In this document: positions 25,465 to 29,045 of the stretch, one piece after another
Numbering within the stretch: position 1 is the stretch's first letter
Layout: the number at the start of each line of letters is the position of its first letter
From: Bythopirellula sp.
Lineage (GTDB): Bacteria > Planctomycetota > Planctomycetia > Pirellulales > Lacipirellulaceae
Length of the DNA: 64,000 nt
Assembly: GCA_965216565.1 (NCBI GenBank)
Contig: OZ244170.1
Coordinates: forward strand, 32,001 to 96,000
Direction: 5' to 3'
Notes under the pieces: generated by a model
The model's input: the letters and a program-made list of their open reading frames with translations, nothing else
What the model was told of the DNA's origin: nothing
Databases searched by the model: none
Program-made: the position numbers and the translations under genes

Positions 25465-26479
25465 GGGCAACAATAGTAAAGAGCGACGTTTGGGCCGAGG
25501 TTTAGAAGCATTACTTGGACGATCAAATGACGAGCCTGTCGAGCAGGAAGCCGTCATTGAGATCGAAGAGTCGGAAGCGGAAACGCCTCAGACTTTGTCA
25601 ATTTACGAAGAGGATGCTTCAGCAGTCTCTCGAAGCGATGACGGCCAGCAATGGATCGAGTTGGGCTCGATTGACCGCAATCCCCATCAGCCTCGCAAGC
25701 ACTTCGACGAGTCGGAGATTGCCGACTTATGCGATAGCATTCGCAACCACGGCATACTGCAGCCGATCGTGGTGCGGCCCGCAGGCGATCGGTTTCAGAT
25801 CATTGCCGGTGAACGCCGATTTCGTGCCGCTCAGATGGCGAGCTGGGAAAGCGTGCCGGTGCAGCTCCGCGAGGTAACGGACCGACAGATGGCTGAACTG
25901 GCCATCGTGGAAAATGTCCAACGTAAGGATCTCAATCCTTTGGAAAAGGGGGCATCGTTCCAACGCTATTTGCAAGAGTATGGCTGTACCCAAGAAGAGC
26001 TCGCCACTCGAGTGAATATCGATCGATCAACCGTCGCCAATCTCATCCGATTGTTGGAGCTTCCCGAGGCTGTGAAGCAAATGATTTCCGATGGCAAGAT
26101 TGCTCAAGGGCATGCCCGGGCACTATTGCCACTGGGTGATGAAAAAGAACAATGCGAATTTGCCAAACGAGTCAGTGGCGAGTCTCTCTCCGTCCGGGCA
26201 ACCGAGCAAATGGTCCAGGGCCACATCCATCGAGCAGATGGCGAGCCTTTTTCTGTGATTGATAGCGAGGGCAATTCGCGGCCTGCGAAGACCCGTCCGA
26301 GCGAGCATCTGGCTCAAATGGAGGAGCAGCTTCGCCTCGCTTTGGGGACCAAGGTCGATCTCAAACAGACGGCCAAGGGCAAGGGCCGGATCACGATTCA
26401 CTTCAAGAATCACGCCGAATTCGACCGCTTACGCGCGATCCTCACTGGCGAGGAAGAGTCCTTGAAAGAAGCGACGTAG
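25457..26479 (+). CDS. parB: Chromosome partitioning protein ParB/Spo0J
   Basis: LGRGLEALL, NPHQPRKHF, IIAGERRFRAA, ENVQRKDLNPLE, HTH RSTVANLIRLL; overlaps the parA stop. Confidence 0.96.
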   Translation: MSRGNNSKERRLGRGLEALLGRSNDEPVEQEAVIEIEESEAETPQTLSIYEEDASAVSRSDDGQQWIELGSIDRNPHQPRKHFDESEIADLCDSIRNHGILQPIVVRPAGDRFQIIAGERRFRAAQMASWESVPVQLREVTDRQMAELAIVENVQRKDLNPLEKGASFQRYLQEYGCTQEELATRVNIDRSTVANLIRLLELPEAVKQMISDGKIAQGHARALLPLGDEKEQCEFAKRVSGESLSVRATEQMVQGHIHRADGEPFSVIDSEGNSRPAKTRPSEHLAQMEEQLRLALGTKVDLKQTAKGKGRITIHFKNHAEFDRLRAILTGEEESLKEAT

Positions 26480-26598
26480 TAGTGAGGGGCTAGAGGCTGG
26501 GGGCTAGGGACTAGTAAGAATACTATACATAAGTATAGTAACTGACCTTGGCTCCAGCGGTTACCATCTATCGAAAGCTATTAGTTAATAGCATCAAG

Positions 26599-26660
26599 CG
26601 GGGCGTGGCGCAGCCTAGTAGCGCGGTCGCCGCGGCGACAGGTCGCACGTCCGAATCATG
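26599..26660 (+). pseudogene. tRNA-Pro-derived copy lacking the 3' acceptor strand, anticodon arm replaced by GTCGCCGCGGCGAC
   Basis: CGGGGCGTGGCGCAGCCTAGTAGCGCG-[palindrome]-AGGTCGCACGTCCGAATC aligns to the tRNA at 26695. Confidence 0.85.
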
Positions 26661-26694
26661 ACATTACTGAATAACTAAATAATCCAAAAAATCT

Positions 26695-26768
26695 CGGGGC
26701 GTGGCGCAGCCTGGTAGCGCGACTGGTTTGGGACCAGTAGGTCGCACGTTCGAATCGTGTCGCCCCGA
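26695..26768 (+). tRNA. tRNA-Pro (anticodon TGG), CCA not encoded
   Basis: Cloverleaf: acceptor CGGGGCG/CGCCCCG, D stem GCGC, anticodon stem ACTGG/CCAGT with loop TTTGGGA, T loop TTCGAAT. Confidence 0.95.
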
Positions 26769-26772
26769 CTTC

Positions 26773-27021
26773 ATGTTCTACGTCTACGTGCTTCGAAGCG
26801 AGAAGACGGGTCGATTCTACACGGGATCATGTGGCGATCTGGATGATCGATTGCACCGCCACAACTGTGGCTACTCGAAAGCCACCAAACACGGGATTCC
26901 TTAGCAGCTCCTCTACTCTGAGGAATTTCAAACTCGTTCTGAGGCCGTTCAGCGTGAAATGTATTTCAAGAGCGGGACTGGTAGAGAAAAGCTGAAGTCT
27001 CTCATCGAGAATCTATCCTAG
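26773..27021 (+). pseudogene. Small GIY-YIG nuclease gene (YhbQ/YazA-like) with an in-frame TAG at 26902-26904
   Basis: MFYVYVLRSEKTGRFYTGSCGDLDDRLHRHN...HGIP*QLLYSEEFQTRSEAVQREMYFKSGTGRE; family-like sequence continues in frame past the stop (likely TGG>TAG). Confidence 0.85.
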
Positions 27022-27060
27022 TAGCCTCTTACATGGATGACACACGGGTAGAACAGTGTT

Positions 27061-27113
27061 GTAGCGCGGTCGCCGCGGCGACAGGTCGCACGGCGCGAAT
27101 CGTGTCGCCCCGA
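27061..27113 (+). pseudogene. tRNA-Pro-derived copy lacking the 5' end, same palindrome replacing the anticodon arm
   Basis: GTAGCGCG-[GTCGCCGCGGCGAC]-AGGTCGCACG-GCGCGAAT-CGTGTCGCCCCGA. Confidence 0.85.
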
Positions 27114-27131
27114 CCTTTTGTAGAGCCGGAA

Positions 27132-29045
27132 TCAAACTGGCTCGGCTGGCCGTGTTTGTAGGTCGACCATCTCTCGGTAGTCTCCCCCGGTTTGCATGAG
27201 AGCGTCGTGTGTGCCGACTTCGACGATTTTTCCGTCTCGTAAGACTACAATCCGATCGGCATGGGCGATGGTGCTAAGTCGATGGGCAATGATAAAGCAG
27301 GTTCGGCCGTTGACGAGCATCTGTAAACTGGCCTGGATCATTCGTTCGCTCTCGGTATCGAGATTACTGGTGGCTTCGTCCATAATCAGAATTTGCGGAT
27401 CGGCCAAGACCGCGCGGGCAATTGCCAGGCGCTGCCGTTGTCCGCCGCTCAGTCTTACGCCTCGTTCGCCAATTACCGTTTCGAAACCGTTCGGCAACGT
27501 CTCGATAAACTCCGTGGCATTGGCCACATCAGCCGCGGTTCGAATGTCGTCGAGGGTGGCACTGCGATCTGCATAACCAATGTTGGCTGCGACGGTGCCG
27601 TCAAAGAGAAAAACATCTTGTTCCACAATTCCGATCAAACGGCGATAACTCTCCAAATCGTACACCCGTAGTTCATTGCCATCGAGTGATATCCGGCCTT
27701 CGATTGGATCGTAGAAGCGGGCGATCAGGTTGCAGAGAGTCGTCTTGCCTGCGCCACTGGGACCCACCAATGCGATTGTTTCCCCGGGTGCGACCGTCAG
27801 CGAAAAATCCTGCAATGCCGGCCGATCCGCATTGGGATAGGAAAAGGTGACATCCTCGAATTCAAACTTGCCTACGAACCGTTCTTTGCTGGCCTTGATA
27901 GTTGGAGTGTCGGTGTCCAATTCTCTTGGTTCTTGAAGCAAATCGAGAACCCGATCGAATCCGGATAAGCTATTTTGAAACGCAGCAGCGCTCTGAGCCA
28001 GAACGGCAAGGGGGGCGAGCAGCATCAGCAAATACACGAGAAACATCATCAGTTCGCCGAGCGTTAGGTTCCCTTCCAAAACTCGCCAACCGCCGTAGAG
28101 CAATAGAGCCGCGGAGGCCAGGGGAACGAGGGTTTCCCAGACGATTTCTACGATTCGCATCCACCACCAGGCATACAACTCTTGTCGGCCCATAAGATGG
28201 TTGCCACGCATAATGCGGTTCGACTCGGCCTGTTGCCGACTGAACGCCCGAACGACTCGCGAACCCCCGAATGCTTCGGTCGCTAAGGCATCGACTTCTT
28301 CACGTTGTGCGCGGACTCTGCGGAATTGTGGTCGGATTCGGCCAATCCAAGTGCGGTGGGAGATATACACGAGCGGCACAAGGACGAGTGCCCCCAACAG
28401 CAACCGCCAATCGACCCAAGCCAAAACCACCATGCTGCCCAGGAGCTGGATCACCGCTCTCCAAGGATTGTAGAGCAAGCCGAAAACCAGATCCCCGACG
28501 CTACCTGCGTCTTGGCGCAAGATGCTCGCGGCTCCCCCCGACTTGAGTTCTTGCATCCGATGCAATGGCAATCGCAGTGCCTGGTTGATGACCCTCCGGC
28601 GAACAGACATCTGCAGGAGCTTGGTCACTCGCGTCGCGTGCCATCGGCCCCAAACACGCAGGGTGATTTGAATGACCGAAACCGTCAGCACGCCTCCGCA
28701 AATCCAAAGCAACAGGGGCCAGGGATCGCTTGGTACCCAGTCAGGCACGTATTCGGGCAGCGGTTCAGTTCCTAAGACGTTGTCGACAACAAACTTGGTT
28801 GCTGCCGGTGGCAAGAGCGATAAGACAGTCGCCACAGTCAGCGTTCCAAGCGAGAATGCGAGGCTTGCCCAATGCCCCCGCGAGAGCTGGAAGAAGCTGC
28901 GGATCAATTCGATTGCAGAACGTTCGCGCCCTCTCCGCTTTTCTGTCGTGCCATGCGGATGTGCAGGGCCATCGCTGCCTGTCCGAAATTCTTCCTTATA
29001 GTTTTCAAACCGTCTGCGAGATGGTTCGTTGATTCTGCTCGCCAA
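27132..29045 (-). CDS. ABC exporter with fused permease and ATP-binding domains (MsbA/MdlB-like)
   Basis: TM domain plus GPSGAGKT, LSGGQRQR, ILIMDEATSNLD, IAHRLSTI. Confidence 0.93.
   Translation of the reverse strand: MASRINEPSRRRFENYKEEFRTGSDGPAHPHGTTEKRRGRERSAIELIRSFFQLSRGHWASLAFSLGTLTVATVLSLLPPAATKFVVDNVLGTEPLPEYVPDWVPSDPWPLLLWICGGVLTVSVIQITLRVWGRWHATRVTKLLQMSVRRRVINQALRLPLHRMQELKSGGAASILRQDAGSVGDLVFGLLYNPWRAVIQLLGSMVVLAWVDWRLLLGALVLVPLVYISHRTWIGRIRPQFRRVRAQREEVDALATEAFGGSRVVRAFSRQQAESNRIMRGNHLMGRQELYAWWWMRIVEIVWETLVPLASAALLLYGGWRVLEGNLTLGELMMFLVYLLMLLAPLAVLAQSAAAFQNSLSGFDRVLDLLQEPRELDTDTPTIKASKERFVGKFEFEDVTFSYPNADRPALQDFSLTVAPGETIALVGPSGAGKTTLCNLIARFYDPIEGRISLDGNELRVYDLESYRRLIGIVEQDVFLFDGTVAANIGYADRSATLDDIRTAADVANATEFIETLPNGFETVIGERGVRLSGGQRQRLAIARAVLADPQILIMDEATSNLDTESERMIQASLQMLVNGRTCFIIAHRLSTIAHADRIVVLRDGKIVEVGTHDALMQTGGDYREMVDLQTRPAEPV

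Follow-up and report, generated by a model that had tools for sequence, protein, structure and literature searches.

A decaying nuclease-hairpin cassette lodged at the tRNA-Pro(UGG) gene of a Bythopirellula genome, a probable selfish element spreading without an integrase

The window considered here is a stretch of 64,000 nucleotides from the genome of a Bythopirellula sp. (assembly GCA_965216565.1, contig OZ244170.1, positions 32,001 to 96,000 of the forward strand); this genome is designated G000 below. Within the window lies a small cassette, entirely on the + strand, in which an intact tRNA-Pro(UGG) gene and a small GIY-YIG nuclease gene are enclosed between two partial copies of the tRNA, each carrying a short palindrome in place of the anticodon arm. 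As developed below, this unit probably represents one decaying example of a cassette that recurs at tRNA-Pro genes, associates a small GIY-YIG nuclease with a fixed hairpin, is likely selfish and would spread without an integrase.

The left partial copy (26599 to 26663) was delineated from the sequence and from an alignment of the three tRNA copies, and homologous left copies occur between parB and tRNA-Pro in four relatives (G020, G022, G023, and G059). It retains tRNA positions 1 to 26, that is the 5′ acceptor strand and the D arm (26599 to 26625), followed by the palindrome GTCGCCGCGGCGAC (26626 to 26639), which has a 6-bp stem and takes the place of the 17-nucleotide (nt) anticodon arm. 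Past the hairpin come the variable loop aggtcgcacg (26640 to 26649) and a decayed T arm, tccgaatcatgaca, running to about 26663; the 3′ acceptor strand is missing. An AT-rich spacer of 31 nt (26664 to 26694), similar in size and composition to the spacers of the relatives, separates this copy from the tRNA gene; it contains TAAATAAT, which could be a -10 element. The intact tRNA-Pro(UGG) gene extends from 26695 to 26769 according to ARAGORN and to 26768 according to the Rfam tRNA model (63.5 bits, E = 4.7e-13). The Ssn-like, single-domain GIY-YIG gene (26773 to 27021, 82 codons) was defined by its frame and a profile match. Its ATG begins 3 nt past the ARAGORN end of the tRNA and 4 nt past the Rfam end; the distance of 4 nt given in an earlier, sequence-only reading of this DNA thus holds with the second boundary and not with the first. 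Finally, the right partial copy (27053 to 27114), also based on sequence and alignment, has equivalents in 28 of the 34 tRNA-Pro loci surveyed below. Weak similarity to the tRNA starts at about 27053 and is followed by the 3′ part of the D arm, gtagcgcg (27061 to 27068), by the same palindrome (27069 to 27082), and by the variable loop, the T arm (with TT replaced by GCG in its loop) and the 3′ acceptor strand up to 27114.

In the alignment of the three copies, the swap coincides exactly with the boundaries of the anticodon arm. The two partial copies share a perfect 32-bp direct repeat (26618 to 26649 and 27061 to 27092; 100% identity over 32 positions by BLAST), with 443 bp from repeat to repeat. 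Both features, first pointed out by the sequence-only reading, are therefore confirmed. When the palindrome was counted over the whole genome (5,211,746 bp), two occurrences were found, both in the cassette; a control 14-mer of reversed sequence occurs once per strand. Chance origin was considered and rejected, the 14-mer being confined to the two swap sites in 5.2 Mb and the swap recurring in other genomes. The tRNA-Pro(TGG) gene is single among the 48 tRNA genes found along with a tmRNA. As had been supposed, recombination between the 32-bp repeats would thus remove the only gene of this type, and such a deletion would be lethal because the inner tRNA is the sole tRNA-Pro(UGG).

The reading frame of the nuclease displays all of the motifs VYVL, RFYTG, R..HN, and E, and it matches a profile built from four intact homologues with an E-value of 2.0e-35, one TAG lying inside the match. 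This TAG (26902 to 26904) is codon 44. The four intact homologues, when aligned, all have a Trp at this position; the gene of the window is therefore a pseudogene. The intact homologues match the Pfam GIY-YIG family PF01541 with E-values of 7e-13 to 4e-16 (49 to 60 bits, for a cut-off of 22.6). The homologues are 82 to 89 amino acids long, PF01541 being the sole domain found in them, with no extra DNA-binding domain; the nearest chains of solved structure are stand-alone UPF0213 proteins of 96 to 107 amino acids. A second, more distant GIY-YIG open reading frame (ORF), frameshifted near its start, is found elsewhere in the same genome (G000:C1:3190847-3191041), 32 nt after a tRNA-Asn(GTT) gene. 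In its surroundings (G000:C1:3190744-3191130, outside the window), a degenerate D-arm-like remnant is seen behind the ORF, and no hairpin is left.

The sequence-only reading had set beforehand a search for palindrome-swapped tRNA fragments beside GIY-YIG ORFs of about 80 amino acids in other genomes, and such fragments were found. A pattern scan of 120 genomes of the family led to the examination of 18 loci; the 17-mer GTCGCCGCGGCGACAGG is exact in 15 of them and differs by one letter in the other 3. In 17 of the 18, the hairpin is surrounded by tRNA-like flanks (...AGAGCG, hairpin, AGGyC...); the remaining locus, an exact match (L026), lies in unrelated sequence. The intact tRNAs in these family loci are tRNA-Pro(TGG), tRNA-Pro(CGG) or tRNA-Val(GAC). 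Upstream copies retain the 5′ half and downstream copies the 3′ half, and tandem left copies occur, three in G085 (with a period of 71 bp) and two in G086. Of the 17 tRNA-context loci, 6 have a nuclease homologue directly behind the tRNA, and a seventh shows a partial homologue at the end of its contig. Pattern matches with at most one mismatch are present in 82 of the 120 genomes, a figure that is unusable as a prevalence, many of these matches lying in a different context (GTCGCCGCGGCGACCGG) or in coding sequence, as in L026. With the profile of the four intact proteins, nuclease homologues were recovered in 25 of the 120 family genomes and in 3 of the 27 genus genomes searched, that of the window included. 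Twelve of the 29 nuclease genes of the family lie 3 to 54 nt downstream of a same-strand tRNA gene (Pro-TGG, Pro-CGG or Asn-GTT), the second copy of G000 being one of the twelve; in the remainder, a partial tRNA copy precedes one gene, and two others are truncated where their contigs end.

A prokaryote-wide survey, using one genome per species, yielded 68 confirmed nuclease loci in Planctomycetota, Verrucomicrobiota, Bacteroidota, Ignavibacteriota, Patescibacteria, Gammaproteobacteria, Acidobacteriota, and Spirochaetota. The nuclease gene is located at most 120 nt downstream of a same-strand tRNA gene in 40 loci, and this tRNA is a tRNA-Pro in 34 of the 40 (TGG in 20, CGG in 12, and GGG in 2). 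These tRNA-Pro loci belong to Planctomycetota and Verrucomicrobiota. The hairpin core was sought in two zones, one running from 60 nt ahead of the nuclease match end to 200 nt past it and the other covering 260 nt upstream of the tRNA. It is present behind the nuclease in 28 of the 34 tRNA-Pro loci, upstream of the tRNA in 13 and on both sides in 12, the background being 6 matches over the 81,713 nt of these loci outside the two zones. Right ends are very compact: many verrucomicrobial nuclease genes terminate on the TAG that opens the D-arm remnant TAGAGCG, four bases ahead of the hairpin.

Comparison of the hairpins shows that the palindrome goes with the nuclease. Among 52 distinct hairpins of the 14-nt class found in a tRNA context, 42 are identical to GTCGCCGCGGCGAC letter for letter, in two phyla. 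The compensatory form GCCGCCGCGGCGGC (GCCGCC..GGCGGC) appears in two independent cases, one verrucomicrobial and one planctomycete, and the remaining hairpins differ at one position or in the loop. The stem is kept while the loop varies (GC, TC, TG, or AT in the 14-nt form; TGA or TGT in a 15-nt form). In the planctomycetes G132 and G135, which hold intact tRNA-Asn cassettes, nuclease genes follow tRNA-Asn; the encoded proteins group outside the Pro clade, and the partial tRNA-Asn copies carry another hairpin, GTCCGCCGCRGGCGGAT, which replaces the 5′ part of the anticodon arm. Two left copies stand in tandem in G132, and in G135 the unit formed by the nuclease gene and the right copy is tandemly repeated. 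Further nuclease clades have further hairpins within partial copies of tRNA-Ala, Ser, Leu, and Val. The sequences thus tie the hairpin to the nuclease clade, not to the tRNA. The sequence-only reading had imagined that the palindrome was installed by repair; a fixed, clade-specific sequence that travels with its nuclease, replaced by other hairpins in other clades, argues against this view.

Several variations of the hairpins were observed along the way. At some tRNA-Pro right ends (L058 in G085, L062 in G087, L065 in G059, L010 in G023, and L115), the T arm is also swapped, for a second palindrome, CCGCCGCGGCGG or CCCGCCGCGGCGGG, both of which have the core CGCCGCGGCG in common with the anticodon-arm hairpin; in G059, the T-arm palindrome is the sole hairpin of the right end. 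An extra related hairpin is found in the D loop of some left copies. One D-loop insert, CTCGCCAC(G)GCGAG...GGCGAC, is common to the left copies of L043/L012 (G022), L059 (G086), and L062 (G087), that is to a genome of genus g1 at tRNA-Pro(TGG) and to genomes of genus g27 at tRNA-Pro(CGG). This suggests a common descent for these left ends, spanning different genera and isoacceptor genes. In L072 (G070) and L076 (G067), more distant GIY-YIG genes are located 100 to 200 nt after tRNA-Ala, the 3′ end of which continues into a long imperfect hairpin (ttcgactcgc...gcgagtcgaa). These loci may represent another type of cassette.

In the genus, the cassette can be followed at one orthologous locus. 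Upstream of the cassette in the window are parA and parB, and downstream is an ABC transporter gene on the opposite strand. The parB-tRNA-Pro(TGG) synteny is kept in 11 relatives, to which G059 is added on account of a flank matching those of G022 and G023. At this position, nuclease and hairpin ends are both present in G000, with its dead gene, and in G059, where the gene is intact. Hairpin remnants without nuclease are found in G023 (both ends, the gene being gone) and in G022 and G020 (left copy only). No trace of the cassette is visible in eight syntenic relatives, including G013, the tRNA of which is identical to that of the window letter for letter. The left-copy hairpin between parB and tRNA-Pro is GTCGCCGCGGCGAC in G020 and GTCGCCTCGGCGAC in G023. 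The left copy starts 119 nt after parB in G000 and 130 nt after it in G020, the actual tRNA starting at 215 and 214 nt, respectively; in empty loci the tRNA starts 82 to 203 nt after parB, with one case at 454 nt, and the left-copy starts fall in that range. A full cassette recombining between its repeated tRNA parts would give rise to these three states; repeated gain would account for them equally well.

The empty loci also bear on the idea that the hairpin-bearing pieces are functional RNA elements, a leader and a trailer involved in processing, termination or decoy activity, the nuclease being a passenger. The left copy does lie between the likely promoter region and the tRNA, the acceptor strand of the right copy is followed by a T-rich run, and an RNA hairpin would also show a stem conserved by compensatory changes. 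Nevertheless, eight syntenic relatives use the same tRNA without such pieces, each copy is devoid of one acceptor strand, T-arm decay differs from species to species, and neither partial copy is matched by the Rfam tRNA model, even at E-values up to 10. Moreover, the pieces co-occur with the nuclease, and the hairpin tracks the nuclease clade instead of the needs of the tRNA. A role as RNA elements is accordingly very improbable. The missing acceptor strands, the T-arm decay and the lack of an Rfam match, together with the inactivation of the nuclease gene, make the anticodon-less tRNA mimics envisaged in the sequence-only reading unlikely.

Another scenario would make the two copies attL/attR-like scars, left at tRNA-Pro by an integrase-borne island that has since been deleted. 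The cassette indeed shares with such islands the type of site and the direct repeats of a tRNA part around the insert, and the 32-bp repeat resembles an att core. In relatives, tRNA-Pro(UGG) serves as an integration site: an integrase-like ORF (MPRLSNS.PKYR...) is found about 120 nt after tRNA-Pro(TGG) in G020 (L004, 1200 to 1500) and in G013 (L006), and in G020 a 45-nt repeat of the 3′ end of the tRNA occurs 16 kb away (G020:C45:147677-147721). The same gene is thus a target for an ordinary island that carries an integrase. However, att scars keep the native tRNA sequence, whereas the repeats considered here hold a foreign hairpin in the place of the anticodon arm, around an insert of 443 bp. 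As already noted in the sequence-only reading, no integrase lies nearby: neither integrase nor transposase was detected among the 26 ORFs of at least 150 amino acids between 13257 and 41357 of the window, about 13 kb on each side. In the 28 of 34 tRNA-Pro loci mentioned above, the hairpin accompanies a nuclease gene, not an integrase. That the copies derive from such an island is thus extremely unlikely.

As to known systems, IS200/IS605 and REP/RAYT elements associate a small enzyme with its own subterminal or flanking hairpins, which are recognized in single-stranded DNA; their enzymes are HUH/Y1 transposases, which cut and rejoin DNA. To our knowledge, no joining activity is known for GIY-YIG nucleases. 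The cassette resembles these elements by the pairing of a small enzyme with flanking DNA hairpins and differs from them by its tRNA-derived arms. Both groups are brought up in the Discussion of a study describing the Ssn nucleases (Chenal et al., 2025; PMC11893778), which offer the closest parallel. According to that article, Ssn proteins are single-domain GIY-YIG nucleases of about 94 amino acids (80 to 95) without DNA-binding domain. On single-stranded DNA they recognize a hairpin repeat, called NTS or SRM, and cleave immediately upstream of this repeat. The cleavage expected of a member of the family is site-specific for single-stranded DNA, double-stranded DNA and RNA being spared. The ssn genes are typically flanked by such repeats, a layout that the authors liken to that of insertion sequences, different homologues prefer their own repeats, and NTS repeats are present by the hundreds in Neisseria (PMC11893778).

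The cassette protein likewise consists of a single GIY-YIG domain of similar size, with no DNA-binding domain. GC-rich hairpin repeats with oriented, non-palindromic flanks are found on both sides of the gene (in the window and in 12 of 34 tRNA-Pro loci), and hairpin and nuclease vary together between clades. What distinguishes the cassette from Ssn is that its hairpins replace a tRNA arm inside partial tRNA copies and that the gene abuts an intact tRNA. In Supplementary Data 4 of the Ssn study, Chthoniobacter flavus and Bythopirellula polymerisocia are marked YES for both tblastn (E < 1e-10) and cd10448, other genomes of the Planctomycetes-Verrucomicrobia-Chlamydiae group being marked NO; SRM enrichment is near 1 in the genomes marked YES (PMC11893778). 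These genome-level flags, which may concern genes other than those of the tRNA-Pro type, speak only indirectly for a putative membership of the cassette nucleases. The main text of the article contains no mention of tRNA. A tRNA-lodged, arm-swapped form of the nuclease-hairpin pair was found nowhere in the full-text literature searched, the coverage of which leaves out most subscription journals. By sequence and by analogy, the class would correspond to an Ssn-type nuclease-hairpin module in an unusual lodging place. In the same line, the hairpin is more likely the recognition site of the nuclease itself than a scar of the cutting of tRNA-gene hairpins, which was the activity proposed in the sequence-only reading.

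A GIY-YIG nuclease among tRNA genes has a precedent in SegB, one of the free-standing homing endonucleases encoded among the tRNA genes of T-even (T4) phages and reportedly responsible for preferential inheritance of the tRNA region (PMC2330249; PMC13096335). SegB, encoded by phages, is larger than the cassette protein, includes a DNA-binding part and cuts double-stranded DNA; hairpin-plugged partial tRNA copies are not known for it, whereas such copies belong to the cassette, which is chromosomal and found in bacteria of several phyla. A homing endonuclease of this kind would cut the allele devoid of its gene and be copied there by repair; for the cassette, what is seen in this respect is presence and absence at one orthologous locus. 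Segmental amplification of tRNA loci has also been attributed to SegB (PMC13096335). This activity lends some credit to the view that the arrangement results from local amplification only. In such a model, breaks made at a resident nuclease-hairpin pair would lead repair to duplicate the neighboring tRNA, and gene conversion would copy the hairpin into the spare copies, without any movement as a unit between genomes or between tRNA genes. The partial copies share the D-arm and T-arm variants of the tRNA of their host, and tandem arrays do occur (the left copies of G085, G086 and G132, and the two nuclease-plus-right-copy units of G135). Yet the same hairpin and related nucleases occupy all three isoacceptor genes in two phyla, and they are scattered among genomes (present in 25 of 120 for the family and in 3 of 27 for the genus), a distribution that requires transfer or very many losses. 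Local amplification as the sole process is thus rather unlikely, it being understood that local amplification and a mobile cassette are not mutually exclusive.

Transfer between phyla is suggested by two further observations. A protein from Verrucomicrobiae is 77% identical to the query protein P0001 of Pirellulales, as compared to 63 to 73% identity between the ParB proteins of the genus and that of the window; in addition, the Pro-associated clade (37 rows, support 96/78) mixes both phyla. In one locus, that of G087, the outermost remnants have the acceptor stem typical of the genus and the inner tRNA has another one, as would be expected if the cassette could bring its own tRNA along.

Taken as a whole, these data lead us to favor the mobile, likely selfish cassette presented at the outset. 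The minimal selfish unit of the sequence-only reading is retained in so far as a nuclease cassette tied to tRNA genes does recur, and abandoned as regards the mechanism then written. The following mechanism may be put forward instead. By analogy with Ssn, the nuclease would recognize its own hairpin in single-stranded DNA and cut beside it, producing nicks or breaks that would favor recombination. Portable homology to any tRNA-Pro gene would be supplied by the arms derived from the tRNA, with the 5′ part on the left and the 3′ part on the right. Thanks to this homology, all three tRNA-Pro isoacceptor genes would be targeted despite their differing anticodon arms, and the swap would be precise to the base because homology ends there. 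The resident tRNA gene would be split at the arm boundaries around the unit, and the inner intact tRNA would keep the cell alive. If the tRNA recombined with the right copy, the nuclease gene alone could be lost harmlessly, a loss of the kind seen in G023. As for the window, its unit is a fossil, with a dead nuclease and decaying arms that enclose a working, essential tRNA-Pro.

Several observations weigh against this interpretation. In 28 of the 68 loci of the survey, no tRNA is found within 120 nt upstream of the nuclease gene; in some of these loci a tRNA stands just downstream, others stop at a contig end, and still others contain no tRNA. In 4 of the 28 hairpin-bearing right ends of tRNA-Pro loci, all from Verrucomicrobiota (L086, L094, L111, and L112), the hairpin is in an inverted 5′-half context, the reverse complement of the tRNA 5′ half flanking the hairpin downstream of the nuclease. 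Insertion by simple homologous recombination does not explain such ends, which suggest events centered on the palindrome itself. With respect to Ssn, the genome of the window has 2 copies of the hairpin as opposed to the hundreds of NTS repeats of Neisseria, and the SRM motif HGTCWYN(0-2)YYVSBRHN(0-5)WNVSBRGN(0-2)RNCYNB has no match on either strand between 26401 and 27300 of the window, for 18 matches genome-wide. The nuclease activity of the cassette clade and its membership in Ssn are putative, resting on sequence and analogy. With respect to transfer, the inside of the Pro clade is without resolution and Planctomycetota and Verrucomicrobiota are related phyla; strictly speaking, old vertical descent with many losses could still account for the distribution. 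Finally, inner tRNAs look host-like in each phylum, as do the arms of the partial tRNA copies, which fits local duplication of the host tRNA at least as well as import.

A bolder version of the mobile-cassette reading can be formulated, to which only tentative credence is given. A widespread class of integrase-free elements would invade tRNA genes by their structure: the arm would be replaced base for base by the hairpin of the element's own nuclease, the tRNA halves would serve as universal homology arms, and the sole working tRNA would be kept inside, making the element undeletable. If these views were true, a link would be established between the recently discovered Ssn-type single-strand nucleases and the tRNA genes of many phyla, and a natural biological role for the family would be at hand. 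DNA would spread without integrase or transposase, using tRNA genes, the most conserved in biology, as landing pads and an essential tRNA as a hostage, a novel strategy by which selfish DNA would target its host and make it dependent. The odd "pseudo-tRNA" fragments and tandem half-tRNAs left unexplained by annotation pipelines would find an explanation, and pairs of an 80-amino-acid nuclease and a 14-nt hairpin would become candidates for new specificities of single-stranded DNA cutting. For the genome of the window alone, with its dead nuclease and a fossil cassette around a working tRNA-Pro, the consequence is modest.

The presence of the cassette in the assembly was compared with other sequencing runs. 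It is found in contigs from two runs of the same organism (X1 and X3), with the TAG unchanged, and a contig piece of 471 nt spans 26620 to 27090 at a depth of 24.8, for 29.8 and 32.5 in the flanks. This contig support is weak and not independent, because the runs may be the source sample. In the metagenome run X5, where a strain about 98% identical is represented, contigs cover 26300 to 26724 and 27096 to 27400, nothing covers 26781 to 27076, and no joint is reported. The gap might reflect an allele without the nuclease gene; contigs cannot show absence, and it is not used as evidence here. Run X7 contributed short pieces only.

Some minor features complete the picture. A sigma-70 scan returned no promoter-like site between 26400 and 27250. 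On the 3′ side of the cassette, two terminator-like sites are located at 27137 to 27152. By eye, a TA-rich motif seems conserved across relatives upstream of the left copy, weakly so. Some GIY-YIG restriction enzymes cut CCGCGG, which is the center of the hairpin; a relation to them was set aside in view of the counts in the genome, 1,966 for CCGCGG and 21 for CGCCGCGGCG. About 40 nt past the parB stop codon, the window has an 8-bp inverted repeat (tactatac-ataa-gtatagta, 26521 to 26540), and similar TA-rich palindromes, such as catatgtacacata and atatacatgcgtatac, occupy the same place after parB in several relatives. This inverted repeat may be a terminator or an operator. Right behind the parB stop codon, a short G-rich repeat, ggggctagaggctgggggctagggactag, is found at 26483 to 26512.

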